Part shown: positions 2,663 through 42,253 of the stretch, one piece after another
How the letters are laid out: the number at the start of each line of letters is the position of its first letter
How positions within the stretch are numbered: position 1 is the first letter of the stretch
Virus record (IMG/VR): IMGVR_UViG_3300023174_000305
Coordinates: 1-42,254 of that record
Length of the DNA stretch: 42,254 nt
Direction: 5' to 3' (one strand)
Source: a virus
Lineage: Duplodnaviria; Caudoviricetes
The notes under the pieces: generated by a model
What the model was told of the DNA's origin: nothing
The model's input: only the letters and a program-made list of their open reading frames with translations
Database searches by the model: none
Made by a program: the position numbers and the translations under genes

Positions 2663-2841
2663 CAACGTGCGTTCTGTTCAATGACAAAGGCGAGTTTGTT
2701 AACACAATCATGGCCGAGCCAACAGATTGGGTGGAAGAAGGCTGGCGGCTGGAAGAAGTGCCAGAAGGATACGTTTGGAACGGTAAGGCTATTGTTCTTG
2801 CAGGAATAATGCAAAACGAAGTTACGCCGGAAGTTATTTAA
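2659..2841 (+). CDS. small hypothetical protein, possibly tail-fibre assembly
   Basis: 60 aa; ATGA and TAATG overlaps with its neighbours. Confidence 0.65.
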   Translation: MTTCVLFNDKGEFVNTIMAEPTDWVEEGWRLEEVPEGYVWNGKAIVLAGIMQNEVTPEVI

Positions 2842-5800
2842 TGCCTACCGTAACGATTGCAATTACATCGGGGACTCGCTGGAGGGTTCCGGTTGATTGC
2901 ACATCTGCAACTATTGAAGTTATTGGTGGTGGTGGCGGTGGTGGTGGCGCTTATTCAAAAACCAATTCAGTTTCGCTAACTCCGCTTTCGTTTGTTTATG
3001 TAAATATTGGAGCGGATGGCGGAGACACTTGGTTTAATAAAGCCGCCAACTCTGCACCAACATCAACTACAAACGGTGCTTTAGCAAAAGGAGGCGCAAC
3101 TACCGCTGGATGCTGTGACCCTATTCTTCTTGGGGGTCAAGCGATTGATGGTGTTGGTGACACTAAGTTTTCTGGCGGCAATGGAATAAGAAACCTTACC
3201 TGTAGTGGAACCGTTTATGAAATTGGTGGCGGCGCTGCGGGGCCTTCTGGGGCGGGTGGAAACGCGGGGGAAACAAAATATAACGGAGGCGGAGGCGGAG
3301 GCGGAGGAGCCAACGGAGGAACAAACGGAACAAACGGATCTCTCTCGTTACCAAGCGGTAATGGGAATGGTGGAACAGGTGGAAATTCTGGAGCAGGGGG
3401 CGCTGGAGGGGCGGGAGGTCTTGGTTCAATAAGTTCAGGAACGACGGGATCTCCGGGAACAAACGGTGGTGGCGGTGGCGGTGGCGGTGCTGATACAGTT
3501 GTTCCATTTGTTGCCGTAAACAATGGTGGCGGCGCAGGGTCCATGCAAGCAGTCTGGACAGACTACTTGGGAAATTCATATGGACCGGCTGGCGGATCAG
3601 GCGGAGAACCTTATACAAACATTGATCTTGTTAGGACCATTACGCGAAGAACCAATTATGGCGGTGGTGGAGCTTTAAGCGGTGGTCAAGGTCTAATTAT
3701 CATTGCCTATACCCCGGTAGTGACGATTGGCAACTCGTACACGGAAGTATTAAATGAGGATGGTTCAACTGGAGTAAGCACACCAAGCCGTTGGCGTATT
3801 CCATACGGAGTAGATACTGTAACCGTTCACGCTATTGGTAGCGGATCATCTGGCGCAACGGCTTCTCCTTGGGGCGGCGGTGGCGGCGGAGCATATGCTA
3901 CATCTGCCGTTGATGTAAGCACGTTAAACAACACAGGCGCATACTATTTAAATTACTTTACTAGTGGTCTTACGGGAGGATCGGACGCTTGGTTTAATAA
4001 ATCAGCTTCATCTGCCCCCAGTGTTTCAACCAATGGTGCTTTAGCTAAAGCGTCAGCAGCGGGTAGTAGAACCGGAGGAACTTCTGGATCTTCTGTAGGT
4101 TCGACCGTTTATTCTGGAGGAACCGGAGGACAAGGTGCTGGCACAACGATCAGAAAAGTTGGTGGCGCCGGCGGTGCTGCTGGTCCATCTGGAGTAGGTA
4201 AAAATGGAGGAGATGCAAATGGTGGTAGTTCCGCCTCTTCCGGAGGCGGAGGTGGATCAAACGGCGGGTCTTCCACTGCTGGCGCTACCGCACCAGCCGC
4301 CGCGACCGCTGGTGCTGGGGGCGCAGGTAATGGTGGGACAGGAGGTGGCGCGGCTGCGACTGCATCAACTAATGCTGGAAACGGGTCTAATGGTGGTGGC
4401 GGTGGTGGCGGAAAAAATACTAACGGCACGTTTTTAAACGGCGGCGCTGGCGGCACACAAAACATCTGGACTGATTCTGGGACTGCCAATTCATACGGAC
4501 CCGGTGGTGGTGGTGGAGGTAGTGCGGCGACTAACTCAACTAATATTGGAACTCCGGGTGCTGCTGGATCGTGGGGCGGTGGCACAGGATATTTAGGCAC
4601 TGCTGGTCATCCGTTAATAGTTCTTCAGTACACAATTAGCAAAGCCGCTCCGGCAGACAATTCCACAATAATAGAAACAGCTTCCGGCGCGGACTCTGTA
4701 TTAGCAGGTTTGGTTTATTCTAGGTCAGTAACAGAAACCGCTTCTGGCTCTGATGCTGTACTCGCCAGCTTGCTTTATGCTAGGTCAGTATCGGAAACGG
4801 CTTCTGGCTCTGATTCTGTATTAGCAAGTTTGGTTTATGATAGGTCAGTATCGGAGACGGCTTCCGGCTCGGATTCTGTACTTGCTAACTTGCTTTATTC
4901 TAGATCTGTATCGGAAACGGCTTCTGGCGCTGATTCTGTATCCAATACGCTAACAATCTCTTCATCGGTCACTGAGTCCGCGTCTGGCGCGGATGCTATT
5001 ACTAGCAAGGTCACGTTTAATCTAAGCGTATCGGAGTTAGCGTCCGCTCTAGAAGCGATTAACGGTGGGCTTTCATTTAGTAGCAGCGTTCTTGAGTCGG
5101 CAGCGGGGGCGGATGTAGCAAACGCTGTTGCTTCTTTTGTTGGGACGATTGCAGAAACCGCCGCTGGACTGGACGCAGTATCTGGCACGTTCTTATTCAG
5201 CGTAACCGTTACTGAAACGGCAAGTGGTGTTGAGGCTGTCTCCGCTACATCCACGTTTGCTTTAGACATCGCCGAAACGGCTGCGGGGCTAGACTCCATA
5301 AGCAGCACCGGCACGTTTAATATTTCCGTGTCTGAGTCGGCCAGCGGTGTTGACAATGTAAGTTCTGTTGCCACTATAGCCGCAAGAATTGCCGAAACCG
5401 CTGCGGGCGCAGACCTTACGGTTGGGGGGCTTTTATTTATTCTAACCGTATCCGAGTCGGCTTCGGGTACAGACGCTAGTACTAGCGCCTTGGCTTATGC
5501 CGTAATCATCAACGAGATCGCTTCCGGCTTAGACGCACTTGGGGTTGGCGGCACATTTAATATTGCGGTTGTAGAGGCGGCGTCAGGTTTTGATGTTGAC
5601 TTGCCCTCCGGTTCCTTTGGTATTTCCGTTGTTGAATCGGCAACGGGCGCTGAAGTTGTCACCACCCGCCTTGCGTGGGAACCAATTGATGACTCGCAAG
5701 TACCGAATTGGACTACAATCAGCACATCCCAAACGCCAACGTGGACTACAATAGGCACGGCGCAAACGCCAAATTGGACTACAATGGGCACGGCGCAAAA

Positions 5801-5861
5801 TCCGGTTTGGACTGATATTTCCAACCCACAGACTCCCGGCTGGACACAGATTCCAACGTAA
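2841..5861 (+). CDS. glycine-rich tail fibre / receptor-binding protein with repetitive stalk
   Basis: 1006 aa: two homologous Gly-rich domains (RWRVP...IGGGG and RWRIP...IGSGS, each with WFNK...NGALAK), then 17 x 20-aa repeats and 6 x 11-aa Trp repeats. Confidence 0.75.
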   Translation: MPTVTIAITSGTRWRVPVDCTSATIEVIGGGGGGGGAYSKTNSVSLTPLSFVYVNIGADGGDTWFNKAANSAPTSTTNGALAKGGATTAGCCDPILLGGQAIDGVGDTKFSGGNGIRNLTCSGTVYEIGGGAAGPSGAGGNAGETKYNGGGGGGGGANGGTNGTNGSLSLPSGNGNGGTGGNSGAGGAGGAGGLGSISSGTTGSPGTNGGGGGGGGADTVVPFVAVNNGGGAGSMQAVWTDYLGNSYGPAGGSGGEPYTNIDLVRTITRRTNYGGGGALSGGQGLIIIAYTPVVTIGNSYTEVLNEDGSTGVSTPSRWRIPYGVDTVTVHAIGSGSSGATASPWGGGGGGAYATSAVDVSTLNNTGAYYLNYFTSGLTGGSDAWFNKSASSAPSVSTNGALAKASAAGSRTGGTSGSSVGSTVYSGGTGGQGAGTTIRKVGGAGGAAGPSGVGKNGGDANGGSSASSGGGGGSNGGSSTAGATAPAAATAGAGGAGNGGTGGGAAATASTNAGNGSNGGGGGGGKNTNGTFLNGGAGGTQNIWTDSGTANSYGPGGGGGGSAATNSTNIGTPGAAGSWGGGTGYLGTAGHPLIVLQYTISKAAPADNSTIIETASGADSVLAGLVYSRSVTETASGSDAVLASLLYARSVSETASGSDSVLASLVYDRSVSETASGSDSVLANLLYSRSVSETASGADSVSNTLTISSSVTESASGADAITSKVTFNLSVSELASALEAINGGLSFSSSVLESAAGADVANAVASFVGTIAETAAGLDAVSGTFLFSVTVTETASGVEAVSATSTFALDIAETAAGLDSISSTGTFNISVSESASGVDNVSSVATIAARIAETAAGADLTVGGLLFILTVSESASGTDASTSALAYAVIINEIASGLDALGVGGTFNIAVVEAASGFDVDLPSGSFGISVVESATGAEVVTTRLAWEPIDDSQVPNWTTISTSQTPTWTTIGTAQTPNWTTMGTAQNPVWTDISNPQTPGWTQIPT
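4674..5675 (+). repeat. in-frame 60-bp tandem repeat (17 units, consensus like ETASGxDxV)
   Basis: A Glu codon occurs at exactly 4674+60k for k=0..16; the first 4-5 units are the most similar at DNA level. Confidence 0.9.
5676..5858 (+). repeat. in-frame 33-bp repeat (6 units, WTTIxTxQTPx)
   Basis: TGG at 5676, 5709, 5742, 5775, 5808 and 5841. Confidence 0.9.
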
Positions 5862-16681: not shown

Positions 16682-17830
16682 ATGCCTAATGTCCTACAAC
16701 CATCGCTGTCAAACACGCCGACCTCTAAACAAGAAGACACGATTACGGGCATAGCTCCGTATGTGGAAGATCTGCTAAAGCGTGGGCAAGCTTTCTCAAC
16801 TGCAAAAACCCCTGTTTATAAGGGGCAGTTAACTAGCGGTCCTGCTAAGTATGAAAGCGAAGCTTGGAAAGGGTTGGCAAACTTAGCATTGCCTGAGAAT
16901 TCTAAGTTTAATACTGCTGCCGCGCAGCAATATATGAATCCGTACATTGAGGCGTCTTTAAACCCGCAGCTAGAACTACAAAGAAGGCAAGCCATTATCA
17001 ATCTTGAGCCTGAAATGACAAGGTTAACCAAAGCAGGTGGCTTTGGTGGCTCTAGGCAAGCTGTGCTTCAAGGGTTAGCACAAGAAAATCTTCTTCGCCA
17101 GCAAGCGGCAACCACTGGCGCTGAGTATGAGAAGGCATATAACGCTGCTGTGGCTCAGTTTAATGCTGACCAAGGCAATCAGCGTTCCAACTTAACCGCT
17201 TTGTCTACTGCGGGTGGAACCCAGCATGAGCGGGAGCAAGCCGCTCTAGATGCCCAGTACAACGAATGGTTGCGTCAAACCAAGTACCCTAAAGAACAGC
17301 TTGAAGAGCAGAAAGGTCTTATATCTGCGCTTGCTCCTACATTGCCTAAGACTCAAGTTTTGTATGGGCAAAAACAAAGTGCATTGCAGCAACTCACCGC
17401 TGGAACCGCTGGTCTTACCAAGTTTGCCAAAGATCTTGGGTACGCATCTATAACAGACTTGGCAAAAGGGATGGGCGTACCAATTGAGAAGCTGGCAAGT
17501 GTGTTTGGTATTACAGGCATGGTCAACGAAGCAGAAAAGAAAATCAGCGATCCAACCTATGGAAAAGTGGGAGAGTCTGGAAAGCCAGTTGAAACTGACA
17601 CTCCAGAAGGCACCCATAGAGATGCCGCTGGAAATTTGATTGATGATTCAACTGGATTGCCCGTTGGCGCCGTTGAAACCCCTGACAATCAAGATGATAA
17701 TTTTGATCATATTATGATTGACCCTAGGGAAGCCGGAGGTTTTGACACGGTCAATTATGGCGGAGAAGTTCCAGAAATTGCTAGTGGCGGGTTGATTGAT
17801 TTGCTGCACAAGATGCGAGGTTACAAATGA
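16682..17830 (+). CDS. putative DNA ejection (pilot/transfer) protein
   Basis: QQYMNPY and GGFGGSRQAV motifs; Q/A-rich helices typical of podovirus ejection proteins. Confidence 0.65.
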   Translation: MPNVLQPSLSNTPTSKQEDTITGIAPYVEDLLKRGQAFSTAKTPVYKGQLTSGPAKYESEAWKGLANLALPENSKFNTAAAQQYMNPYIEASLNPQLELQRRQAIINLEPEMTRLTKAGGFGGSRQAVLQGLAQENLLRQQAATTGAEYEKAYNAAVAQFNADQGNQRSNLTALSTAGGTQHEREQAALDAQYNEWLRQTKYPKEQLEEQKGLISALAPTLPKTQVLYGQKQSALQQLTAGTAGLTKFAKDLGYASITDLAKGMGVPIEKLASVFGITGMVNEAEKKISDPTYGKVGESGKPVETDTPEGTHRDAAGNLIDDSTGLPVGAVETPDNQDDNFDHIMIDPREAGGFDTVNYGGEVPEIASGGLIDLLHKMRGYK

Positions 17831-19182
17831 ACTTAGTTCAAATTACGGAACAGTTGAAGAATCCTGCTATCACTGTTCCCCAGTTAATGCAATACGCAAA
17901 CAACTCTAATCCTCAAGTGCCTTCTTATGTTGCCCTTGCAGAAATGCAAAGACGGCAATCTATGCAAGCACCTGCACAAGTTCCTCAAGAGACAGTGAAG
18001 GATCAGCTTGGTGCACAGTTGATGGGTTTACCTGCTGCCCCCGGTGCTGCGCCACAACAGGGAACAGAACAGCCTCCGCAGCCTCCGCAACAACCTCCGC
18101 AGCCTCCGGAACAACCTCCGCAACAGCCTCCACAACAGCCTCCACAAGGAATGCAGCAGCCGCAAATGCCTCAACCCAAACCTGCGCTGCCTATGCAGCC
18201 GGGGATGGCTGGGGGAGGACTTACATCCATCCCTTTAAACATGCATCATGATTTTGCTGCTGGGGGGATTATTGCATTTGCTGGAGGCGGGGAGCCAGAT
18301 CCTTATAGATTAAAAACCCCGATAACAGAAGAAGAGGCAGAAAAAAAACAAAGGGAAGCAGAAACCAAGTATGGTTTTGGCAATGATCCATATGCAGAAG
18401 CTAAACGCCGTTATGCTGAGATTGAAGCTAAACAGAAAGAAGCCGAGAAAGGTGCGGGGTTTGATAGAATAATTGCTTCCCTTGCCGCTATGGGTGGCGG
18501 TGGACCAAGACAGTTTGGCGATGTAATGGCGTCATATGCAAATACATCATCCAAGATGGAAAGCGAACAAAAGAAAGAAGCCGAACAGAATGCCATGAAG
18601 ATGGCAGATCTCCATACCTTGTGGGCTAAAGAACAGGAAGCCATGAACCGCGCTCGGTATGCTGCGGTTACCGGGAAGGTTAAAGAAGAAGAAGAAGCGA
18701 ATCGTGAGATTGCTAAACTTCAACATGCCCGCGCACAAGCTCAAGCTTCAACCACAACGGCTGAAGCTGCCAAGAGAAACGCTGAAGTTAATGTTGGAGA
18801 ACTTGCTCTTAAAGAAACAGAGGCTCCATTTAAACTTGCACTATATAAAGCACAAGCCCTTCGTGAAGGAAGACCGCCCCCAAGCATTGAAGAAACTCTA
18901 CGCTATATGTCTGATCCAAAATATGCAGCAGCATATGATCGAATGCAAGCTGCAAGGACTGGCGAAAAGAGCAGTCTTACTGAAAAAGACATTTGGGAAT
19001 CAAAAGCCAAAAATGATCCTATGTTTGCCCAGCTTCCTATTGATGAGCAGCTTAGACAAGTGCGAGATGCAATGAAACCTGCTACCGGGACAACTGTAGT
19101 AAAGTTGCCTGATGGGAGGTCTTTGTCTTTCCCAACTGCACAAGCAGCAGCCGAGTTTAAAAAGAAAGCCGGAATTCAGTAA
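17827..19182 (+). CDS. putative DNA ejection protein with a Q/P-rich repeat
   Basis: VPSYVALAEMQRR start region, (QPPQ)n linker at about 18067-18150, long A/E/K helices. Confidence 0.6.
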   Translation: MNLVQITEQLKNPAITVPQLMQYANNSNPQVPSYVALAEMQRRQSMQAPAQVPQETVKDQLGAQLMGLPAAPGAAPQQGTEQPPQPPQQPPQPPEQPPQQPPQQPPQGMQQPQMPQPKPALPMQPGMAGGGLTSIPLNMHHDFAAGGIIAFAGGGEPDPYRLKTPITEEEAEKKQREAETKYGFGNDPYAEAKRRYAEIEAKQKEAEKGAGFDRIIASLAAMGGGGPRQFGDVMASYANTSSKMESEQKKEAEQNAMKMADLHTLWAKEQEAMNRARYAAVTGKVKEEEEANREIAKLQHARAQAQASTTTAEAAKRNAEVNVGELALKETEAPFKLALYKAQALREGRPPPSIEETLRYMSDPKYAAAYDRMQAARTGEKSSLTEKDIWESKAKNDPMFAQLPIDEQLRQVRDAMKPATGTTVVKLPDGRSLSFPTAQAAAEFKKKAGIQ

Positions 19183-22100
19183 TGAACTATGACGAACTTG
19201 CCAAGCAGTATGGCGGAACCTTTGTTGGAAGCAACATTGATGATCTAGCCAAGCAGTACGGTGGTAAGTTTGTTGAAGAAACAAAACCTGTAGAACCGAC
19301 TACCGGCTTCACTGGAGCATTTGGTTCCAGTGTAGAACGCCTCAAAGGTCAGGGTGCGTTGCTTGCTGGGAAGGTAGGGATCATGGACCCTGCCGAAGCG
19401 GAGAAATATTACCGCGAGCAAGAAAAGAAAGCAGGTGCGTTTAAACCAACAGAGAAGGGTTGGGGTGAAGCTCCGCTTACAAAGGTGGCTGAACTTGCAG
19501 GGCAGTCCATTCCTTATATGGTTGCGCCTATTGTTGCCGGGGCAGCAGGTGCTGTTGCCGCGCCTGAACTGGCTGTTGCAGGTCTTGGCGCAGGTACTTT
19601 AGCTGCTTTTGGAACCAGTGCTGGGCAGTTCACTGCCAGTAACCTTGGGCGGCAGATGGACACCGGGAAGAGCTTGGCAGACACCAATCTGCTTAAAGCA
19701 GGTGCTGCCGCGATCCCACAAGCTGCTCTTGACACCATCTCAATGAAGATGGCTCCGGGCATCGGGCGTATCTTTGAATCAGCAGGAATTAAACTTACGC
19801 AAGACACTGCGGAACAGATTGCTAAGAAAGGACTTCTAGCAAATGCTGGAGAACTTGCCTATGCAACAGGCAAACACGCAGGGACTGAAGGTCTTACTGA
19901 ATCAGCGCAGCAGGTATTTGAACGGCTGCAAGCCGGTTTAAACATCACAAATGAAGAAGCTCGCAAAGAATATTTTGAGAACTTCATTGGCGGTGCTGTA
20001 CTGGGTGGGACAATAGGTGGTGCTGGTCATGTGTATGAGAAAGCGTTCCCTAAAACTGACAAGCCAGAGACACAACCAAATGCACCGGCTGTTCCAAAGA
20101 CATATTTAAACGAAGAGACTGACTATAAACATCCAGTCCACAATCCAACTGGGATGTTCACTGCTGCCGAGCTTGGTGATGTTGCACAGCAAGTTAACAA
20201 TGTCCGAGAAGCTGAAGGCAAGCCCCTGCTGCGGTCTTTTTCCATCGAAGACCTGCATGATGCCAAGATAGGTCAGGACGTCATAGACGGGCTTGTAGCA
20301 GCCAAAACGGGGTATCAGGGACAGGAAGTCACTCCTCAAACTGTGATTGATGCTGCCCAGAATATAGATACATCATCCAAAGGGTTCACGGATTTCCTAG
20401 CCCGGACAACAGGTAAATCCAACCTCACGGAGATGACTCCTCCTGAGTTGCATGCTGCTGTTACCGCGCTCAATGGCTTGCAGGGAATCACGGAGCTTCC
20501 AGAAGGAACTAACTCCCACGCATTTAAACGGTCTGACTATGATCAGGCCATTCAAAACCTTTCCGGTTCGTTGCAGACCAACCCCTTTATGGGACCAACT
20601 AGTGTCATCCATGAGATCAAGACTAGTCTCAACACATCGGATGAAATCGCAGATCAAATTCTAAAAGCTGCACTGCGTAACAAAGAACTCACTATCACCA
20701 CCACGCCGCATTACGACTTGACTGATGCCGAGGGCAAGGTGGTGTTCTCTACCCCGGTCAAGGCGGTAGCAGACAGTGCAGCCAGCAAGCATGGTTTAAA
20801 CGTTATTGAGAGTTCCAGCGAGGCTATTCATCTGCCCACCACTGAGATCAAGTCAGAAGATCTTGAAGGCCCGGATGCGCCTGCTGAATATGAACTCAGG
20901 GCAGGCAATCAGTTGCTTGACAGGTTTAAATCTGAAGATGATGCGTTTACAAAAGCTCAAGAGTTTCAAAAGGTAAGGGCTACGCGCAAAGCTGCTGCCC
21001 GCGATGAAAGGATTGAAGCTCTTGCTGAAGTGGATGCAGATGCAAAAAAGATCGAGGAGATGGCTGCTCTTGGTAAGAGAGACACTCCAGAATATGAACA
21101 AGCAGTTGCAAAAGCTGAAGCCAAAGCTGAACAGAGCATGGCTAAAGCAAAAGCTCTTGAGCTTGAGCAACTGGAATTGGACGCGCCGGTATCAGTTCTT
21201 CCCTATACAGCAAAGGCAGTCTTTAATCGTGAAGCACAGGGTAAAGCTCTAGACCTAGCTAAAGATCTGCATCCACAACTGAAGCGGTTTGGTCTTGAGA
21301 ATGTTTCCCTGCGTGTTGTGGATAGCATTCGCAACGGCACGGCAGACGGTGAGTACGCACAGAACCTCATCACAATTGCGATGGATGCTGATAACCCGCT
21401 TGGGGTACTGCGTCATGAGTCCATTCACGCTCTGAAAGAACTCGGTGCTTTTACAGATGCTGAGTGGAAAGTTCTTACCGAACGCGCTCGGAAAGAATGG
21501 ATTCCTAAGTACATCCAAGAAACTGGTTTGTATGATGAGTATTACAAACAGTACACAAGTCAAACAGGATCTGATGCCGGGTTTCAAGAATACATCGAAG
21601 AAGAAGCCATCGCAGAAGCGTTTAAACACTTCTCGGTTAAACCGCCTGCCGGGTTGCTCGGTAACCTTGTCTATCGTTTAAAGCAGTTCTTCGCTGCGCT
21701 AAAGGCTGCGTTTAAAAAGCAAGGGTTTAACACCGCAGACAGCATCTTTGGTCGCATCGAGGAAGGGAAGGTTCGTCCTACCTTAGCTCCCGGCACTTCA
21801 AATGGGAAGTATTCAATTATATCTTTGACAGAAGCTCTTCGTAAAAAAGAAGAAAAAGAAGACGAAGATTTTGACAAAACAATGGCTGACTATCAGTTTG
21901 CCAATCAATTAAACAAACAGGAAAAGGCTTTAAAAGATGCCTATAAGTTTATAAATGAAAACAAAGATACATTTGAGATTGCACAAAAGGTAAAAGACCT
22001 TCAACTCTTTGATTTTGATTCTTTTGCAGAAAAGCAAGGAGTAAGATTTTACGACATAGACGGGCTGGATACTGCATTAAACAATTACAAAAAAGTATAC

Positions 22101-25100
22101 AGCGATGCGGATAAAATTTTTCAAAACTGGCAAACATTAAAAGACAGAAATCAATTGTACGAAGGAGGAGTCTGGGCTAACAATATAGACTATTACTTAA
22201 AAGATCAAGAAAGCTATATAAAATCTGCAAATGATTATGTTGATGCAGTTCGTGAATACCAAAAGACTGCTAACAAAAAGAGTGCATATGTTCGCCGTGA
22301 ATTGGCGGAGCTAAACAAAATCCTTCCGCCGGTAACAGAACTTAAGGTTAAGAAAACCAAAGCCAAGCAACAAGAAGGGCAGGTACTGCCGTTTGTTAGA
22401 CCGCAGAAGTTTGAGCGGTTTAGTCTTCGTTCAGAGCGAGATGCTTCAGACACGTTTGGCGCTGGTGCAAAACGGGTTAAGTATACGGATGAACAAAGCA
22501 ATGGAACTATAGAAGTAGTTGTCCGTTCAGATGGAAGCGCATCTGTTCTTAACCTTGAAGTTCCAGAAGAATTTCGCGGCAAAGGGTTTGGGAAAAAACT
22601 TCAAGCTAAAATATTAGAAGACTTCCCTAAAATGCAAGGGCAAGTGTCTTCTAAAGCTGCTGCTAAAACTGCTTATGATTTAGGAAGAAGACCTCCGGGC
22701 AAACCTAATGCCACATTAGAAGATGTCTTTAAGTCTATTGACAAAGATTCTTCTGTTAATTTGGTTTCTCCTGATATGCAAGGAAGGTTTAGTCTTAGGG
22801 GGGTTAAGGCTCCAGAAGGAACCAATCTTAAGGCAGCAACTGTTGGCTTGACTGAAGAAAGAATAAACGACCTAGTGCGTGAGTATGGCTATACCGATGG
22901 GCGATTTAAAGCTGAAGTTGTTTACGTCAAACCGCAAGAGTTTTTAGATGCGGTGGCTGATCGTGCTTATCAAACCCGCCTGAAAGAAGAAACAGAGAAA
23001 TACGGCAAGCCTGACTTTGCTCAGTATGCGCCAATGAACCTTCAGGTTAGAGATGGGAAGATCGTTAACCATGAGGGAAGGCACAGAGCTTTAGAGCTAG
23101 TAAATGCTGGCGTGGATAAAGTTGCTATTGTTCTTTACAGAAACGATGGTTCACTTAAACGTTTCCCTAAAGTCTTGTCTCCGCAAGATCAAGGAGCACA
23201 TACTGGCTTTAAGTCTTTGCATGTTGAAAACGCAATACCAACTACATACGAAAATTTAAACAAATTAAAAGAAACGTTTGTTGAAAAACCGGAAGTCAGA
23301 TACAGCCTTCGTGCGCCTCAGACCGAAGCGTTCAAGAAGTGGTTTGGCAAAAGCAAGATTGTTGACTCCAACGGCGAACCTAAAGTCATGTACCACGGCA
23401 CTGCGCGGGACATTACTGAGTTCAAGCCAAAGCAAGCTGATGCTATCTTTTTGACACCTGATCCAGAGTTTGCAGCAAAATTTGCTGGAATGTCTGAAGA
23501 TTACATGGAGAATGAGTTTTACAAAAACCTTTCAAGCAAAGAAAAACAGCATTTGTTTCTTTTAGTAATGGAAGAGAACAAAGACAATTACATAAAAGAC
23601 TATGGTAATGAATGGTATGAAGATGCAATTGATACCATAAAGTATTCTCAGTCTTTGTATACATCATCCGGTATTCGCACCTTGCCAACTCATTTTGGCG
23701 TAGGTGCAAAAATGTTTACAAGCGACTTAAAGAAAAAGATAGCACTTAATCTTGAATCTCGCGCAAACATAATGCCCGTATATGTACGGGCAGAGAACCC
23801 GTTTGATTACGAAAACAAACGGCATTACAGGATTTTGCTTGAAGACAATGACCTTGATGAATCAGTTCTTAATGAAATGATGCATGGCGATTGGGAGACT
23901 ATTGAGTCGGATTTGGTTCAAGAAGCAATTCAAAATTCTGGGTTTGACGGGTTTTATATTAAAGAAAATGGCGTAAAGAACCTTGCCGTTTATGAGTCCA
24001 ATCAAATAAAGTCTGCCACTGGAAACATTGGTACATACGACATCAATAACCCTGATATCCGGTTTAGCCTTCGCGCTCCTGACACCAAAGAGTTTAAAAA
24101 GTTCTTTGGTAACAGCAAGGTTGTTGACAAAGATGGAAACCCGGAAGTCCTGTATCACGGCACTACAAACGACTTCTCTGAGTTTGATAACCTGTACACC
24201 ATAGGCCAGCATTTTGGGACTGCAAAGGCAGCTAATGACCGTTTAAAGCACATTGCTTATAAAAGACGGATGCAAGGGTTTAAGAACCTTAAAGAAGCTG
24301 AAGGAATACCAGAAGGCGCAAACATCATGCCTGTGTTTGTTAGTCTGCAAAATCCTTTGCAAGCCGAAGATGTTGGCAATTGGATGGATTCAGCCAATAT
24401 TGCAGTAGATAATAGTGAAAATAAACAATTGTCTAAAAATGCTAGAAAAAAGTTAAGCGAGTTGGCTGATGAGCTTGAAGATGAACGCAGTCAGTTTGAT
24501 TTAGAAGAACTCCCGTATGAAGATTTTTCAGATGAAGATGGCAATCCAGCACCTGTTCCAGATTGGGCAAACAACTGGACGGTTTCAGATGAAAACAGAC
24601 GCGCTCTTAGAGAGATTAGGTATATTCTGGAAGAAGACGGGTTTGATGGAATCGTTTATACCAATGACGTAGAAGATAAAGGAAAGAAATCTTACATTGT
24701 ATTTGACTCGGAGAACGTAAAGTCTGCTACTGGAAACATTGGCACATACGACAAAGAGTTTAGAGATGTTCGATTCAGCATTCGTGCTCAAGTCTCTCCT
24801 GCTATCACTGCCCGTGTTGATACTGTTTCCCCGGCTCGCGTAGAAAAAGGATTCGTCGAACGTATCCTATTGTCAGTGTTCCCTGAAAGCGCAGCCAAGT
24901 TCCGTATCGGGTACATCAATGCGCTAGAAGGGATTGAGCGTCAGACCAAAGCAAAAGCTGAACAGTTTGGCAACCTTGAACTACTGGCAGATGTATCCGC
25001 GCTGGCAGCAGCTAACCAGTCCCAACGCGCAGCAGGTATCGCGGCAGCAGCCTTCCAGCATGGCGTACCTGTTTACTCCAGAGGTCGCACTACCGTTAGT

Positions 25101-27422
25101 GATTTAAACGGTTCCGTTAAAGGTCTGTTGGATGTTTTGCAACCGTTGATGGCATTGAAAGACCCGGAGGTATTCCGTTACTTCCAGTTCTATGCAGGGG
25201 TTAAACGCGGGCAGCGGCTGCTTCGCTCAGGCAAAGAAAAACTCTTTGAACAAGCAGATGCTCAAAAGGGTCGTGACCTTGAGCGTCAGTTCCCTGTGTT
25301 CAGACAAGTGTTTGATGACTTCCAAGCCTATAACAAAGGGCAGGTCAAATACATGCGAGACACTGGAGTTATTTCTCCAGCGGAAGAAAGAATCTGGACG
25401 CAGAACTGGGACTACATTCCTTTCTACCGTCAGCTTGATGATGAAGTGACTCAGGGTCCTAAGATCTTCTCTTCGATCTCTGGTGTTGCCAAGCCGAAGG
25501 AACTGACTGGTTCCGCGCAGTACGTTGTCTATGACGCCAACGGCAACGAGGTGGGTGCGTATAAACAGCAAGCTGAAGCTAACCAGCATGCTGCCCGTGT
25601 AAACGGTACAGTGCAGCTTGAAGGTACCCCGCTTGCCGACTTCATCGAAACGGTTGTGCGTAACTCCCGTGCAGCTATTGAAGCAGGTCTGAAGAACGAA
25701 GCTTGTCGTAGAGCTATCCGAGATTCTGTTGCGCTTGGTACTGCTACCCGCTTACCAAATGTGCAAGCAGGGACAGACGTTATCAATTACAAGGAGAACG
25801 GGAAGACTGTGTACTACCGAGTACATGACCCGTTGCTTGTTGAATCCTTAAAGGGTTTAAACCTGCCACAAGTTCCCATGTTGGGACTGTTTACCGGGCC
25901 AGCTAGAATTTTGCGGGAAGCGGTGACCAAGACCCCGGACTTCGGCATCGTAAACTTAATGCGTGACTCTCTGTCTACTTGGATTACAAGTGGCAGCAAG
26001 ATGACCCCGATTGTTGATTCGTTTAAACAAGCGGGAAAGATCCTAGCCAACCGAAGCCCGGAAGCAGTTGAACTAGCAAAGATGGGCTTGGGTGGGTATG
26101 ACTTTCAAGGAGATGTCAAAGCATCTGCTGAAGAATTCACCAAAGAACTTAGAGCAAGAACCGGGAATCGGACAAAGGCAGAACAAGCTCTTCTGCCCAT
26201 ATCCAAATTCTGGGACATGCTAGAGAAAGGCTCTTACGCATCTGATATGGCTACCCGTGTCGAAGTGTATAAACGGGTACTGGCTGATACAGGAAACGAA
26301 GCAGAAGCGTGGCATCAGGCTCTAGAGATTCTTAACTTCTCCCGCCGTGGTAACTCTCAGTTCATCCGGGTGCTATCGGCTATTGTGCCGTTCTTGAATG
26401 CTCGCATCCAAGGTCTTGACGTTCTTTATCGCTCAGGCTTTGGTCAAGCGGCAATGGTCAACAAAGAAGAAATGCGTAAAGCATTCTGGATTCGTTCGTT
26501 GATCTTGCTTGGTCTAACCGGCATGTATTGGGCAATGGTCCATGATGACGATGAATACAAAAAGCTCACCAACGAAGAACGGGATAACTACTGGATCATC
26601 CCCGGACTAACTGTTAACGGGCGTCCGTTCAGGTTCCCGATTCCGTTTGAACTTGGCACTATCTTCAAGGTGTTTCCAGAACGCATCTTGGAAGCCACAC
26701 TGGGTCAAGACACCAACCAAGACTTCATGAAAGCATTTAAACGCAATGTGATGTCTAACCTTTCGTTTAACCCCGTCCCTGTGGCTGCATTGCCAATCAT
26801 GGAGAACTGGTTTAACTACTCAGTGTTCACTGATCGCCCCGTGGTTGGTAGGGGGTTAGAAGGTCTTGCACCTGAAGCTCAGTACACCTCGTCTACATCA
26901 GAGTTTGCAAAAGACCTTGGCAAGATCATAGGGTATTCACCTATCAAGATTGATCACTTGATTCGCGGGTACACAGGCAACATGGGCATGTACGCTACAA
27001 GCATGCTTGATACTGTGCTTGCCAGCCAAGATGATCCTGTACGCGCTACAAAGAGATTTGAGCAACTGCCTGTTATTAAGAGGTTCTTCTCAACGGACTC
27101 TGGCAGCATCGAGGCGTTCTATGCTCTCAAAGGCGAAGTGGATGAAACTGTACGGACAGTGAATAACATGTCTCGTACCAATCCGCAGGAACTCAAAGAG
27201 TACCTCGACCAGAAACATTTAAACCTGTACGGTCTGCGGTCCTACATCAACGTGATGTCCAACTACATGGATAACATCCGTGCTGCCCGGAACGCAATTA
27301 ATTTAAACAAGAACCTGACTGCTGATGAAAAGCAAGAGCGATTGGAAAGGCTACATCAAGCAGAAGTTAAAGTGACTGAAAACATCAGGGCGCTTCGGAA
27401 ACGATTTGAACAACCTTCTTAA
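19182..27422 (+). CDS. large polyvalent internal virion protein: zincin metallopeptidase, GNAT, ParB-like, two ADP-ribosyltransferase-like domains, C-terminal LPD38-like region
   Basis: 2746 aa. HESIH at 21414-21428 with downstream EEEAIAEAF; GNAT-type VPEEFRGKGFG; ParB-type NHEGRHRA; two copies of FKKxFG.SK.VD..G.P.V.YHGT...NIMPV...GFDG...KSATGNIGTYD; C-terminal ERDNYWIIP...FPIPFELG. Confidence 0.8.
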   Translation: MNYDELAKQYGGTFVGSNIDDLAKQYGGKFVEETKPVEPTTGFTGAFGSSVERLKGQGALLAGKVGIMDPAEAEKYYREQEKKAGAFKPTEKGWGEAPLTKVAELAGQSIPYMVAPIVAGAAGAVAAPELAVAGLGAGTLAAFGTSAGQFTASNLGRQMDTGKSLADTNLLKAGAAAIPQAALDTISMKMAPGIGRIFESAGIKLTQDTAEQIAKKGLLANAGELAYATGKHAGTEGLTESAQQVFERLQAGLNITNEEARKEYFENFIGGAVLGGTIGGAGHVYEKAFPKTDKPETQPNAPAVPKTYLNEETDYKHPVHNPTGMFTAAELGDVAQQVNNVREAEGKPLLRSFSIEDLHDAKIGQDVIDGLVAAKTGYQGQEVTPQTVIDAAQNIDTSSKGFTDFLARTTGKSNLTEMTPPELHAAVTALNGLQGITELPEGTNSHAFKRSDYDQAIQNLSGSLQTNPFMGPTSVIHEIKTSLNTSDEIADQILKAALRNKELTITTTPHYDLTDAEGKVVFSTPVKAVADSAASKHGLNVIESSSEAIHLPTTEIKSEDLEGPDAPAEYELRAGNQLLDRFKSEDDAFTKAQEFQKVRATRKAAARDERIEALAEVDADAKKIEEMAALGKRDTPEYEQAVAKAEAKAEQSMAKAKALELEQLELDAPVSVLPYTAKAVFNREAQGKALDLAKDLHPQLKRFGLENVSLRVVDSIRNGTADGEYAQNLITIAMDADNPLGVLRHESIHALKELGAFTDAEWKVLTERARKEWIPKYIQETGLYDEYYKQYTSQTGSDAGFQEYIEEEAIAEAFKHFSVKPPAGLLGNLVYRLKQFFAALKAAFKKQGFNTADSIFGRIEEGKVRPTLAPGTSNGKYSIISLTEALRKKEEKEDEDFDKTMADYQFANQLNKQEKALKDAYKFINENKDTFEIAQKVKDLQLFDFDSFAEKQGVRFYDIDGLDTALNNYKKVYSDADKIFQNWQTLKDRNQLYEGGVWANNIDYYLKDQESYIKSANDYVDAVREYQKTANKKSAYVRRELAELNKILPPVTELKVKKTKAKQQEGQVLPFVRPQKFERFSLRSERDASDTFGAGAKRVKYTDEQSNGTIEVVVRSDGSASVLNLEVPEEFRGKGFGKKLQAKILEDFPKMQGQVSSKAAAKTAYDLGRRPPGKPNATLEDVFKSIDKDSSVNLVSPDMQGRFSLRGVKAPEGTNLKAATVGLTEERINDLVREYGYTDGRFKAEVVYVKPQEFLDAVADRAYQTRLKEETEKYGKPDFAQYAPMNLQVRDGKIVNHEGRHRALELVNAGVDKVAIVLYRNDGSLKRFPKVLSPQDQGAHTGFKSLHVENAIPTTYENLNKLKETFVEKPEVRYSLRAPQTEAFKKWFGKSKIVDSNGEPKVMYHGTARDITEFKPKQADAIFLTPDPEFAAKFAGMSEDYMENEFYKNLSSKEKQHLFLLVMEENKDNYIKDYGNEWYEDAIDTIKYSQSLYTSSGIRTLPTHFGVGAKMFTSDLKKKIALNLESRANIMPVYVRAENPFDYENKRHYRILLEDNDLDESVLNEMMHGDWETIESDLVQEAIQNSGFDGFYIKENGVKNLAVYESNQIKSATGNIGTYDINNPDIRFSLRAPDTKEFKKFFGNSKVVDKDGNPEVLYHGTTNDFSEFDNLYTIGQHFGTAKAANDRLKHIAYKRRMQGFKNLKEAEGIPEGANIMPVFVSLQNPLQAEDVGNWMDSANIAVDNSENKQLSKNARKKLSELADELEDERSQFDLEELPYEDFSDEDGNPAPVPDWANNWTVSDENRRALREIRYILEEDGFDGIVYTNDVEDKGKKSYIVFDSENVKSATGNIGTYDKEFRDVRFSIRAQVSPAITARVDTVSPARVEKGFVERILLSVFPESAAKFRIGYINALEGIERQTKAKAEQFGNLELLADVSALAAANQSQRAAGIAAAAFQHGVPVYSRGRTTVSDLNGSVKGLLDVLQPLMALKDPEVFRYFQFYAGVKRGQRLLRSGKEKLFEQADAQKGRDLERQFPVFRQVFDDFQAYNKGQVKYMRDTGVISPAEERIWTQNWDYIPFYRQLDDEVTQGPKIFSSISGVAKPKELTGSAQYVVYDANGNEVGAYKQQAEANQHAARVNGTVQLEGTPLADFIETVVRNSRAAIEAGLKNEACRRAIRDSVALGTATRLPNVQAGTDVINYKENGKTVYYRVHDPLLVESLKGLNLPQVPMLGLFTGPARILREAVTKTPDFGIVNLMRDSLSTWITSGSKMTPIVDSFKQAGKILANRSPEAVELAKMGLGGYDFQGDVKASAEEFTKELRARTGNRTKAEQALLPISKFWDMLEKGSYASDMATRVEVYKRVLADTGNEAEAWHQALEILNFSRRGNSQFIRVLSAIVPFLNARIQGLDVLYRSGFGQAAMVNKEEMRKAFWIRSLILLGLTGMYWAMVHDDDEYKKLTNEERDNYWIIPGLTVNGRPFRFPIPFELGTIFKVFPERILEATLGQDTNQDFMKAFKRNVMSNLSFNPVPVAALPIMENWFNYSVFTDRPVVGRGLEGLAPEAQYTSSTSEFAKDLGKIIGYSPIKIDHLIRGYTGNMGMYATSMLDTVLASQDDPVRATKRFEQLPVIKRFFSTDSGSIEAFYALKGEVDETVRTVNNMSRTNPQELKEYLDQKHLNLYGLRSYINVMSNYMDNIRAARNAINLNKNLTADEKQERLERLHQAEVKVTENIRALRKRFEQPS

Positions 27423-34002: not shown

Positions 34003-34258
34003 CGTCTTCTTCCTTTTTAGGTTGTGGCCGAGTGGCCGTTGGTTTCCACTGGTCTACCTTCAAAGACAGATAGGTATTGCCAGAGGTTTTGGATTTCGAT
34101 TTCCAGCCAGCAATCTTGATCGTTGCGTAGCCGTCTTCAATCTCCAATCCGTCCATAGCGAGCTTGATCTCGCCACGGTAATCGGGAGCTTCTGCATGTG
34201 CCTTTGTCGGCACGTTAAACAGATTCCCGCTATTTGGTTTAAGGACAAACTTATCCAT
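33986..34258 (-). CDS. single-stranded DNA-binding-like protein
   Basis: NSGNLF...PDYRG...IAGW...YLSL core and acidic DDDIPF tail; next to erf; GAGG RBS before ATG34258. Confidence 0.7.
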   Translation of the reverse strand: MDKFVLKPNSGNLFNVPTKAHAEAPDYRGEIKLAMDGLEIEDGYATIKIAGWKSKSKTSGNTYLSLKVDQWKPTATRPQPKKEEDDDIPF

Positions 34259-34880
34259 TCTTTTCCTCAAAGTTTTTGCGAAGCATTGCGAAGTGTTCGG
34301 TTAGTTTTGTGTATAGCTCTTTGTGGTTCTCCTTCATTTCATCAATTGCGACTTGGTTGCCTTTCCAGAGCTTGGTGAGTTCTGGAATGCTGGTAGCCAC
34401 GTTCGCCCACTCAAACATCATGTTCACGAGCATCGGGTAGTCTTGTTTAAACTCTTCCTCCTTCTTCTTAACTTCGATCTTCTTGACTTCCGGTTTGGGG
34501 TCAGGCTTATCTGTGTCCCGGTCAACCGTGTCGTGCTCGACGATCTCCATTGCCATTAGCCAGAGGTAGCGCCGAAGGTAGGTATGGGTTGAACCAAGAT
34601 CTTGGATTGCTTGACCCTTTGCGCTTTGAACGGCAACCATAGGGCTTGCAAATGCAATTGATCCTGCCCCTTCGGTGTCATGGATGGTTAACGTGACGTT
34701 CGGTCCCTCGAAAGAAAACACGCCACACAATCCCACTTCGTCGAAGATCTTATGAATGTGCGGGATGAAGTCGCCAAGTTCAAAGTAGTGGTACTTGGCA
34801 AACTTGTTCTCGCCGCTCTTCTTCATGGGCGATTCCAAAAGCTTTAAACGAGCCTTTGTTAGTTTTGCGTATACGGTCAT
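34251..34880 (-). CDS. erf: ERF-family single-strand annealing recombinase
   Basis: N-terminal KKSGENKFAKYHYFEL and the ERF motif GSTHTYLRRYLWLMAMEI. Confidence 0.8.
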   Translation of the reverse strand: MTVYAKLTKARLKLLESPMKKSGENKFAKYHYFELGDFIPHIHKIFDEVGLCGVFSFEGPNVTLTIHDTEGAGSIAFASPMVAVQSAKGQAIQDLGSTHTYLRRYLWLMAMEIVEHDTVDRDTDKPDPKPEVKKIEVKKKEEEFKQDYPMLVNMMFEWANVATSIPELTKLWKGNQVAIDEMKENHKELYTKLTEHFAMLRKNFEEKNG

Positions 34881-39657: not shown

Positions 39658-40002
39658 TCAATAGTTATAGGACGTTTTAATTTCAACGATATATTCCCGT
39701 TTTGAAATGCGCCTAGCAAATGCATTAGTGAATGCGCACCCGCAACAATCCCATTCGTGCCTGCAATTAGATCCGCTAAAGTATGAGCCAATTGCGATTG
39801 ATAGATCATTGTTTGCCAATGATCTAGGCGCGATAATTCTATGGCGATAAATACCGCCATCATCAAAATCGCTTGATTCCTTTATGCGTTTGCCGCCGAG
39901 CATTTTAACGTCGCCCACATAAACTTCGTCATCTAATTCGCGATATGCATCGCGATATTTAAACGTCGTGCGCTGATATAAGTTAATTATATGCACGATC
40001 AA
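39658..40002 (-). CDS. hypothetical protein with CRHEWDCCGC motif
   Basis: 114 aa with a Cys/His metal-binding-like motif; start uncertain. Confidence 0.7.
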   Translation of the reverse strand: MIVHIINLYQRTTFKYRDAYRELDDEVYVGDVKMLGGKRIKESSDFDDGGIYRHRIIAPRSLANNDLSIAIGSYFSGSNCRHEWDCCGCAFTNAFARRISKREYIVEIKTSYNY

Positions 40003-40805
40003 CCCTTGTTTACGGTTTCTAATAGTTTGCTGAATGTGCTAGAACCCAATTGACCAATTCGGGTAACATTCACCGAATTGCTAAACGAATGATGAATGTC
40101 CTGAGCGTTTATGCCAATGCCGACTAATTTAACGCCATGCTTTTTGGCAATGGATTCAACGTAACGCATATGCTCCACATTGAAACCCGCGCTATCGGTC
40201 AATACGAAAAGAATGCGTTTCTGTTCTTTTCTGGCAAGTAATGATTGCAAACCCAGATATACCGCCGAATAGTCCGGGGTACTATCATCGGCCATCATAT
40301 GCATCAAACCAAGTTTAGGGGCTGATTGTTGCAATGATTCACCCCATTCTTTAAACGGAATCAAATTTACTTTTTCTTTTCGCATGCAAGTAGATTCACT
40401 CAATGGATTAGAATCTAGATATTCCAGTCTATCCTCACCATTGAATCCGGTAATCGCCCATGCGCAATTGGTGCGAGCGAATATTTTAGCCAATTGAATC
40501 GAAACCGATTGCGCCATTCTGATATCGCGACCATGCATTGAACCCGAACAATCAACCATTAAATGCACCGCCGTTTTAATTGCGGGTTTATATGCGCGGG
40601 TTTTAAAGATATCGGGCGATCCGTTTGCCATTCGGGTTAATGCTCGCAAATCAACCCGCCCGGATTCTTTATGGGTATTCCAACCAATATTGTCGACCGA
40701 TTGCAATAAACGCAATAGGTTAGCGGTAGTCGCTCCCATGTTGCTAATTGGGGTATTGTATTCACGTGAATACGTATATTGTCCCTGAGACTTATCGGCA
40801 TGCAT
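39999..40805 (-). CDS. vWA (MIDAS) domain protein, CobT C-terminal-like
   Basis: SGRVDLRAL, MVDCSGSM (DxSxS), STPDY, ILFVLTDS and LVGIGI motifs. Confidence 0.85.
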   Translation of the reverse strand: MHADKSQGQYTYSREYNTPISNMGATTANLLRLLQSVDNIGWNTHKESGRVDLRALTRMANGSPDIFKTRAYKPAIKTAVHLMVDCSGSMHGRDIRMAQSVSIQLAKIFARTNCAWAITGFNGEDRLEYLDSNPLSESTCMRKEKVNLIPFKEWGESLQQSAPKLGLMHMMADDSTPDYSAVYLGLQSLLARKEQKRILFVLTDSAGFNVEHMRYVESIAKKHGVKLVGIGINAQDIHHSFSNSVNVTRIGQLGSSTFSKLLETVNKG

Positions 40806-40808
40806 AAT

Positions 40809-41777
40809 TTAAACCCATTCAAATTTGACGATTGACGGTTTGCCAATTGCTGGCAATGGATTACTTGCATTAATAGAATGAGAATGCTTTCCTAATTCAT
40901 TCTCAATAAAACCCGTAGGTTCTGGGTTTCTACCCTTGAATTTACCGCTACCCGGATGATTGCCCGGACCGTCGCTATCGCTAGGACCATCGCTAGGACC
41001 ATCGCTATCGCCCATAGGACCGTCGCTAGGCGCATCGCTAGGGTTCTCAGTACCCTTACCCTTACCCGGACCATTCGGACCGTTAGGCGCGTCGCTATCG
41101 GGTTGATCGGGTTGATCGGGTTGATCGGGTTGATCGGGTTGATTAGCCAATGCATTAAACAATTCAATTGCAACATCTACAATGCCGAAGGTATCAGTGC
41201 ATTTATTGGCATCGGCCAATGCTTTAGCAATTGGTTTGCGCCATGGGCTTTTAGTGACAATTTCAGGGAAGTAAATAGGGTAGCCATTTAAACGTCTACC
41301 CTCAATTGCAAGCATAAATGGAATGTTATTAAAATCATTGGGCTTTACATAACCGTCTTTTAGCAGAATGTTATTGACCAATTCGCTAAACAATGCCATA
41401 GCGTTATTAGCGCGACCCGAATTGATAACTGCTAATTCGATGCGTGGGTCTTCCAATCCATTGATCAATGCATTTAGAAACGGACCATGCGTTACGGCCG
41501 CGTTATTCCATGGCGCATTGTCCGTATACCATGCGTGACCTAATTCGTGAAGGATAAAACCAACGGAATTATTGAATGTCACATTCGACACTTGCGAATT
41601 GTCGTCAATGTTAGGCATTACAATCGTTAGATCAATTGCATTGCGAACCCGCCGAAAGTTAATTGCGGCAGTCTTACCATTCCAAAGGAATTGGAAGTCT
41701 ATAACTTTCATTCCGGAAGCTTTTAAAAACCGTTCAGCGGCAGTTTCAATACCGCGCTTTGCGTCAATTCCCAACAT
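40809..41777 (-). CDS. HExxH metallopeptidase-like protein, CobT N-terminal-like, with acidic repeat linker
   Basis: ILHELGHAWYT and NGLEDPRIE motifs; (QPD)n and (DGPS)n low-complexity tail. Confidence 0.8.
   Translation of the reverse strand: MLGIDAKRGIETAAERFLKASGMKVIDFQFLWNGKTAAINFRRVRNAIDLTIVMPNIDDNSQVSNVTFNNSVGFILHELGHAWYTDNAPWNNAAVTHGPFLNALINGLEDPRIELAVINSGRANNAMALFSELVNNILLKDGYVKPNDFNNIPFMLAIEGRRLNGYPIYFPEIVTKSPWRKPIAKALADANKCTDTFGIVDVAIELFNALANQPDQPDQPDQPDQPDSDAPNGPNGPGKGKGTENPSDAPSDGPMGDSDGPSDGPSDSDGPGNHPGSGKFKGRNPEPTGFIENELGKHSHSINASNPLPAIGKPSIVKFEWV
41098..41141. repeat. 9-bp tandem repeat encoding (QPD)n
   Basis: TCGGGTTGA repeated about 5 times. Confidence 0.85.
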
Positions 41778-41779
41778 GT

Positions 41780-42253
41780 TTAAACTCCCATTGCAGTTTG
41801 AAATTCAGACTCATTAATTTCGGCAACATAGATTGCCATTAATTCCGGCAATGTATCCATTGGATACTTATTGACAACGGAATTATTAAATGCAATTGAT
41901 ACCGGCATGCCCATTTTGCATGCCGATGCCCATGCAAGTAATTGACGAATGCTAGGTGGCTGAGTTAATACGCCATTGCGTGCCTTTTCTCGCGCAACAT
42001 TAGCGAATTGCACAATCTTATCGGTGGCGGTAATTGGCAATCCGGAACGGCCAGCAATTAATGCGGATTCTTTAGCGGCATCCATGTATTCAAAGTTAAG
42101 GGTATATGCAAACCGATCAATGAATGCGGTATTCATTGCGGTGGTGCCAGCAAATAAGTGATTACCGTATCCGTTAGTATTATCAGCGGCAAAAAACGCA
42201 ACATAATCGCCAACGGGAATCTTAATATTAGATTCGGGGAATGTAATTCCACG
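41780..42253 (-). CDS. MoxR/CobS-like AAA+ ATPase, C-terminal part (5'-truncated by the window)
   Basis: The frame stays open to the window end: FFAADNTNGYG...FAGTTAMNTAFIDRF (sensor 1 and Arg finger) and PSIRQL (sensor 2). Confidence 0.85.
   Translation of the reverse strand, partial: RGITFPESNIKIPVGDYVAFFAADNTNGYGNHLFAGTTAMNTAFIDRFAYTLNFEYMDAAKESALIAGRSGLPITATDKIVQFANVAREKARNGVLTQPPSIRQLLAWASACKMGMPVSIAFNNSVVNKYPMDTLPELMAIYVAEINESEFQTAMGV

Follow-up and report, generated by a model that had tools for sequence, protein, structure and literature searches.

The stretch of DNA considered here, hereafter the window, comprises the 42,254 nucleotides of the IMG/VR record IMGVR_UViG_3300023174_000305, a 42-kb fragment of a phage genome that is estimated to be 69% complete; the public sequencing runs containing it are lake and freshwater metagenomes, and no RNA run is among those listed. 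One of its genes, which comes after matches to virion structural, lysis and, weakly, DNA-ejection families of PHROGs, encodes a giant protein of 2746 residues with a Pfam match to LPD38 above cut-off (137 bits). Being a large polypeptide that combines disparate domains, including hallmark ones, and is encoded among late and virion genes, it belongs to the phage polyvalent proteins as defined by Iyer et al. 2017. Within this protein a five-residue peptide, hereafter the tag, marks the ends of successive cassettes, is conserved as a peptide in linkers rich in Pro, Glu and Thr, and is the site of in-frame cassette gain and loss. The tag, of the form [RK]-[FY]-[SQA]-[LIF]-[RK], is on balance probably the cut site of a predicted HExxH zinc peptidase residing in the same polypeptide. 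The gene is composed of the following parts:

19182..27422, plus strand: gene of the giant polyvalent (LPD38 / ART-PolyVal) protein, 2746 aa, ~306 kDa
19182..21239, plus strand: N-terminal scaffold, common to homologues and motif-free
21240..21797, plus strand: predicted Zn-metallopeptidase domain, with HESIH at 21414-21428 and an invariant Glu-Glu pair at 21600-21605
21807..21821, plus strand: seam 0, degenerate KYSII, residue 876, in the slot after the peptidase
21807..22415, plus strand: cassette 1, 203 aa, no family
22416..22430, plus strand: seam 1, RFSLR, residue 1079
22416..22784, plus strand: cassette 2, GNAT-like, 123 aa, under the Pfam cut-off
22785..22799, plus strand: seam 2, RFSLR, residue 1202
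22785..23297, plus strand: cassette 3, 171 aa, labelled ParB/Srx-like from its EGRHR motif only
23298..23312, plus strand: seam 3, RYSLR, residue 1373
23298..24059, plus strand: cassette 4, ART-PolyVal, 254 aa, 81 bits at a cut-off of 31.2 (PF18760)
24060..24074, plus strand: seam 4, RFSLR, residue 1627
24060..24770, plus strand: cassette 5, ART-PolyVal, 237 aa, 67 bits at a cut-off of 31.2 (PF18760)
24771..24785, plus strand: seam 5, RFSIR, residue 1864, at the beginning of the conserved C-terminal module
24771..27422, plus strand: conserved C-terminal module, motif-free, with LPD38 at 26547-27074

The six sites, the spacings of 203, 123, 171, 254 and 237 aa from seam to seam and the position of HESIH had been given in a preliminary description of this DNA and were all recovered when the open reading frame (ORF) was checked, as was its statement that the motif is absent from the rest of the protein: [RK][FY]S[LI] is confined to the seams, with no copies elsewhere in the 2746 residues. 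All five strong seams conform to the consensus, and the sixth, KYSII, scores about zero with the family matrix and was accepted through its position only. The corresponding slot right after the peptidase reaches a motif score of at least 7 in 27 of 96 distinct homologue windows, as against none of 382 control windows. Chance is ruled out as the origin of the array, in that R[FY]S[LI]R is present five times in the ORF, whereas a second copy never arose in 20,000 shuffles. An assembly artefact was likewise rejected; one contig of run X1, which may be the source, spans the stretch, and near-identical pieces are found in runs X2 and X3 from other studies. The DNA identity described for the junctions at 22417, 22786 and 24061 was found again, and the G+C content amounts to 35-43% in the cassettes as opposed to 48-49% in the flanks.

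With respect to the cassettes themselves, the labels proposed initially stand to a varying degree. Cassettes 4 and 5, described as ART-like, match ART-PolyVal well above cut-off; both possess the His of YHGT, and by motif comparison, without a structural alignment, Phe occupies the position of the expected Tyr of the H-Y-D triad (FLT, HFGT). The GNAT-like label of cassette 2 rests on five matches to Pfam families of the GNAT clan, all under cut-off (E 8e-5 for GNAT), together with the presence of RGKGFG; the acetyl-CoA-binding motif of GNAT enzymes is R/Q-x-x-G-x-G/A. Cassette 3 of the window has no Pfam match of its own, so that its ParB/Srx-like label is motif-based; EGRHR is common to five aligned cassettes, the most distant of which (18% identity) matches ParB_N under cut-off (E 1.8e-5). 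Cassette 1 yielded no match in Pfam or PHROGs and no usable match in the Atlas, and its identity is only 55-57% in relatives whose peptidase domain is 89-99% identical.

The confinement of the tag extends to the homologues of the giant protein. Among those retrieved with the peptidase region (the best 120 of 213 matches), the strict motif was found 161 times in 155,037 aa of protein middles and not once in 183,386 aa of flanks, the middle running to the protein end in the 35 of 120 proteins whose C-terminal module was not located. An iterated matrix over these homologues yields the consensus given above. In a held-out set of 83 new proteins, obtained with the C-terminal module from the best 120 of 604 matches, the matrix scored 244 times in the middles (81,228 aa) and never in the flanks (128,491 aa) of the 75 members with a peptidase match, and the strict pattern was found 110 times in the middles versus three times in the flanks; moreover, a tag directly precedes the C-terminal module in 77 of the 83 proteins. 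Since the homologues are related, none of these counts represent independent samples. Residues flanking the tag are enriched in Pro, Glu and Thr and depleted of Leu, Trp and Tyr. A conserved tag upstream of the peptidase was considered and rejected (none in 193 proteins; only a few loci have one). The other ORFs of the window and of five near-complete relatives contain no more tags than background (9 hits in 325 ORFs, 81 kaa), and the one capsid protein identified (G007) has none.

That the tag coincides with cassette ends is further evident from alignments in which the motif had been masked to X: BLAST alignments start just downstream of it in 260 of 1885 cases, where 22.5 are expected (11.5x), and end just upstream of it in 200 of 2144, where 29.6 are expected (6.8x). 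For a rarer decoy motif the same comparison showed no excess (0 and 3 versus expected values of 3.2 and 4.0). Splitting the 120 peptidase-search proteins at their tags gives 378 segments, which form 54 clusters and 75 architectures, numbers that are blurred by missed degenerate tags and by fragments; only 6 of 57 scanned cassettes pass a Pfam cut-off. Among the tag-bounded cassettes of homologues, GP88 and DUF7178 are matched above cut-off, and RelA/SpoT, PFIN and YunG-like/ddrB-ParB weakly (L062:11015-12562, L028:10559-12214, L129:13835-14704, L120:4083-4499, L082:12914-13810). In one clade, comprising the L023 protein (residues 1780/1793) and its relatives, two tags lie 10-13 residues apart, like an empty slot kept after the loss of a cassette.

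Close relatives bear out the proposal that the cassettes can be shuffled, with breakpoints at the motif. The window has the order cassette 1-GNAT-ParB-ART-ART. Of three relatives whose peptidases are 89-99% identical to its own, P0002 is devoid of the GNAT and ParB cassettes, P0004 has the order cassette 1-ART-Y-ART' and P0003 the order cassette 1-ART-X-Y-ART', and the tag bounds every one of these changes. Cassette 2 is exactly missing in P0002-P0004 and in one public contig, and cassette 3 in P0002-P0004 and in L179, a contig in a Burkholderiaceae metagenome-assembled genome (MAG), where GNAT is joined straight to an ART and the transition from the last GNAT bases to the first ART bases falls inside the tag codons. 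Hence, exact in-frame gain or loss is seen in all four close relatives (P0002, P0003, P0004 and L179), and cassette number and identity vary in these homologues. Of the 12 joints listed for public contigs at 85% identity, four connect one tag to another without a change of frame (369, 882, 513 and 711 bases), although two of these four may be replacements; the remaining eight lie inside cassettes or the C-terminal module and mostly mark diverged stretches.

A second view of the seams is provided by the residues that follow the ART domain. A search with the second ART cassette gave 149 new proteins, 128 of them with a detectable ART tail. Residues of the xF/Y type follow this tail in 45 of 78 proteins with an HExxH-like motif versus 10 of 50 without (p 2.5e-5), some of the latter being perhaps fragments; since 5% of shuffled sequences also show the HExxH pattern, its presence does not in itself prove a peptidase. 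Conversely, residues of the I-x-E/D type follow in 1 of 78 proteins with the motif and 12 of 50 without. T4-type head proteases cleave after Glu in a short motif, as stated in the passages of PMC5694885 considered here, and hence the slot behind the ART tail seems to be a protease site and to vary in form with the resident enzyme. [IL]-x-E-[SADN] seams resembling T4-type head-protease sites are seen in the HExxH-less ART-PolyVal arrays of P0241, P0235, P0219, P0268 and P0269 (L221:10001-13776); in P0241, [IL]-x-E-[SD] seams also surround non-ART modules, including GNAT, and P0345 has I-x-E-type seams on an LPD38 protein. No protein with I-x-E seams could be linked to a gp21 gene of its own genome, the P0241 contig being a 36-kb fragment that gave no match. 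A search for PF03420 did give matches in three of five other phage records, which were reached via ART relatives that are not shown to have I-x-E seams. Further words after the ART tail include RxNP and TK/TA forms. R-x-N-P seam words occur in P0264, P0279 and P0313, and GRFA[SE]-type words are repeated before the HExxH-less ART arrays of P0207, P0237, P0246, P0211, P0290 and P0320. Several copies of distant HExxH polyvalent genes are present in Bryobacterales MAGs (L193-L201), with RESR words after the domain, which is sometimes split across ORFs.

The domain preceding the cassettes had been described as a zinc-peptidase site, and at the level of motifs this description stands, HESIH being followed by a later Glu ligand (EEEAIAE) as in zincin-like metallopeptidases (MPTases). 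HExxH and EExxA are intact in all 120 of the peptidase-search homologues, and the residues H, E, H, E and E are invariant in 112 of 112 members of a set filtered for HExxH. Among the 83 proteins found independently of the peptidase, 74 have HExxH, and the other nine begin inside the peptidase or a cassette and appear N-terminally cut. The Atlas groups the domain with clusters of polyvalent proteins (LPD23, LPD1, MuF_C). No cultured phage matched the domain in tblastn, a profile search of PDB sequences returned only helical noise, a BFVD fold search with its model only related uncharacterised phage proteins, and an earlier AF2 model from 13 sequences (pLDDT 70, tag region <50, no strand assigned) was uninformative.

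The in-cis cleavage reading is preferred because the tag is confined to the middles and absent from the flanks, because it coincides with alignment ends and exact cassette exchange and is selected as a peptide, because the metal-ligand residues are invariant and the xF/Y seam is enriched together with HExxH, and because the tag is at background in other ORFs and the prohead protease families PF03420 and PF04586 (HK97-/T4-type) were found in none of the five near-complete relatives. A fixed N-terminal scaffold, the HExxH domain and the LPD38 module enclose a variable string of tag-joined enzyme cassettes. According to this proposal, the protein would be packaged and subsequently ejected with the DNA; the HExxH domain would be an active peptidase that cuts the tag after packaging or after entry, and the cleavage would free the cassettes as separate anti-host enzymes. 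If all seams were cut, pieces of about 94, 24, 13, 19, 29, 27 and 99 kDa would result. Candidate scissile bonds are S|L and L|R, of which S|L corresponds to a thermolysin-like preference. Another metallopeptidase, CapP, cleaves Phe82|Arg83, as described in excerpts of the CapP preprint.

A number of observations weigh against this proposal, in addition to the relatedness of the homologues and the xF/Y seams of ART proteins devoid of HExxH. An AF2 model of the HExxH domain built from 112 sequences (pLDDT 90) is all-helical and has no strand, Foldseek (PDB) and VIA listed no peptidase for it, the best match being AdnA (Z 5.8, rmsd 4.2, 108 aligned), and Pfam peptidase matches among the 112 sequences are weak and scattered (M13 5, SprT 2, Tox-MPTase2 2). 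Given that neither a zincin fold nor more than a few weak hits were found, the label 'peptidase' rests on sequence motifs. No full-length homologue with a dead peptidase was found. Co-variation of peptidase residues with tag variants was dropped as evidence because the ten proteins with a Q/K-type tag (S to Q/K) belong mostly to one clade; position 3 of the tag is homogeneous within proteins (0.77 versus 0.67 in shuffled data) but tracks clades. When seven cultured LPD38-type proteins were scanned with the tag matrix, PTXU04, D274 and Page gave no hit, even though PTXU04 and D274 have HExxxH domains, and the Lederberg protein, which is devoid of HExxH, gave one strong hit. Moreover, N4 vRNAP, ArdC and TraC1 are packaged or transferred uncut despite their MPTase domains, as reported in the passages of PMC5512222 considered here.

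In a rival view, the tag is a docking or threading signal which is never cut. Each copy would be bound, in the form of a short strand, by the HExxH domain, by the LPD38 module or by the ejection channel, and this binding would pace packaging, unfolding or passage of the cassettes. Such a signal would account equally well for the conservation at the protein level, the confinement and the seam position, and it would sit comfortably with an HExxH-domain model without a recognisable protease fold and with the MPTase-bearing proteins that travel uncut; it would, however, leave unexplained why metal-ligand and general-base residues are invariant and why an I-x-E form resembling head-protease sites is found at the equivalent seam of HExxH-less proteins, and we regard it as unlikely. 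The seams might also be cut by another protease, either of the host or encoded elsewhere in the phage, with the HExxH domain acting on something else, for instance peptidoglycan or a protein of the host. The resemblance of the seams to protease sites would suit this explanation, as would the xF/Y seams of the HExxH-less ART proteins and the further HExxH ORFs present in the genomes of the window and its near-complete relatives; in addition, the phi24B preprint, in the excerpts considered, assigns the metallopeptidase domain of that phage to peptidoglycan degradation. This explanation is opposed by the absence of the tag from other phage proteins, including the capsid protein examined, by the lack of known prohead proteases in the near-complete relatives and by the enrichment of the xF/Y seam with an in-cis HExxH, all of which render it rather improbable.

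At the DNA level, the tag may be viewed as a recombination joint or a duplication scar without any function of the protein sequence. Crossovers do lie inside the tag codons, one of them with 11 identical bases; the Ser codon classes are homogenised within genes (mixed in 25 of 94 genes versus 67 expected), tag codon use departs from background with an enrichment of AGC, and the phage encodes an ERF protein. On the other hand, three of the four tag-to-tag joints have only 2-3 bases in common with the window's copies, and the family as a whole makes use of every synonymous codon and of both Ser codon boxes (AGY 156 and TCN 166 at 371 distinct tag sites from the loci), whereas the chemical classes R/K, F/Y and L/I/F are kept. 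A universal DNA recombination site was rejected on these grounds, and a purely DNA-based origin of the tag is highly improbable. The nearly equal use of AGY and TCN argues for selection on the peptide in the absence of a family-wide DNA site, and the homogenisation of tag codons within a gene indicates that the seams are crossover points as well; judged from these sequence patterns, both roles hold, the peptide being under selection and the seams being where lineages recombine. Of the microhomology joint suggested previously, the crossovers inside tag codons thus stand, but since the motif is selected as protein and not as a fixed DNA site, microhomology plays at most a secondary role. Exchange may rely on crossovers within the few tag codons that two copies have in common, perhaps with the help of the ERF protein of the phage, a single-strand annealing protein and the candidate agent of cassette exchange; the survivors would be only those products that keep a tag at every seam.

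Two genes outside the giant ORF are relevant to this scheme:

16682..17830, plus strand: upstream gene with a weak match to phrog_4287, labelled DNA ejection protein (E 4.7e-5)
34251..34880, minus strand: gene of the ERF single-strand annealing protein, inferred candidate agent of short-homology cassette exchange

Elsewhere in the window, a MoxR/VWA-like module (39999-42136, minus strand) consists of a VWA (CobT-like) gene, a 322-aa gene that contains HELGH and weakly matches a peptidase PHROG, and a CbbQ-type AAA tail. At 2841-5861 (plus strand) lies the gene of a tail-fibre-like protein of 1006 aa, rich in Gly, in which S-V-x-E-T-A-S-G is repeated and short repeats of W-T-T-I are C-terminal.

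The position of the giant gene, as well as its relatives, including phi24B, suggest that the 2746-aa protein is likely incorporated into the virion and enters the host along with the DNA. The giant protein of phi24B (gp47 in a 2026 preprint; vb_24B_48 in HM208303) was detected in virions and proposed to be an ejection protein, and PTXU04_00025 is needed for efficient infection according to a CRISPRi-ART preprint, as far as the excerpts of both sources go. Both are LPD38 giant proteins like that of the window, although their HExxH domains are remote from its own (for phi24B, hhalign E 0.001, probability 20%). By eye, the first 2617 residues of vb_24B_48 (L220:29149-37001) show Y-S-R near 1462, 1693 and 1894, flanking a second HExxH domain and near the start of the C-terminal module, as well as KLYSLR at 1074, and phiARM81mr shows RFSK and KFSQ around its domain. 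The giant protein of MinM2 (L214:7821-16232), which has two HExxH motifs, carries RESAR at 1124 and 1328 at apparent seams and, again by eye, has cassette types in common with the window family.

Among known systems, polymorphic toxins are characterised by a C-terminal toxin that varies, by silent cassettes downstream of it and by immunity genes. Their effector modules are likewise exchanged through recombination at a common junction, as outlined in the passages of Iyer et al. 2017 considered here; unlike a single C-terminal toxin, however, the window has several in-frame internal cassettes between fixed flanks, its C-terminus being conserved and its variation internal, and orphan cassettes were not systematically searched for. 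In the prohead processing of T4 (gp21), phiKZ and SPN3US (gp245), a short motif likewise marks cut sites in packaged and ejected proteins, but according to the relevant passages of PMC5694885 these proteases cut after Glu, in trans and also in the capsid, whereas the tag is basic-aromatic and confined to one protein; its seams do not end in Glu, which together with the missing protease genes and the tag-free G007 capsid protein sets it apart from T4-type substrates. The closest likeness is to the polyvalent proteins of Iyer et al. 2017 (MPTase, ART-PolyVal, GNAT, ParB-like, LPD38) in domain set, size and position among virion genes. In the passages of PMC5512222 at hand, autoproteolysis of polyvalent proteins by the MPTase is proposed and cassette recombination is raised once, for Verrucomicrobium, and these passages describe neither a cleavage motif nor exact in-frame exchange at a peptide tag, which the alignment files could show. 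A literature search, with subscription papers mostly outside its reach, returned no title or abstract describing the tag motif. Hence, the protein family and the idea of processing were known already, and the explicit seam tag, the exact exchange at the tag and its dependence on a resident protease were not found in print.

With the Glu-type seams in view, a wider proposal can be made tentatively, a little short of probable: polyvalent proteins may be protease-coded polyproteins with a readable seam code, in which portable cassettes move between unrelated viruses and have their seams rewritten to match the protease of the virion, [RK][FY]S-type for an in-cis HExxH enzyme and I-x-E for a T4-type head protease, with the tag as crossover point. 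The autoprocessing proposal of 2017 becomes testable through the present analysis, which provides it with a defined peptide, with fragment sizes to be expected and with matched variants from nature; a self-processing peptidase that is small and recognises five residues would also be usable as a reagent. Whatever the role of the tag, it divides the giant proteins into natural units and in this way supplies a list of candidate injected anti-defence enzymes. If the seam code were true, a newly acquired effector would be ready for release as soon as it is inserted at the tag, and dozens of injected anti-host enzymes that lack annotation could be delimited by the tag alone.

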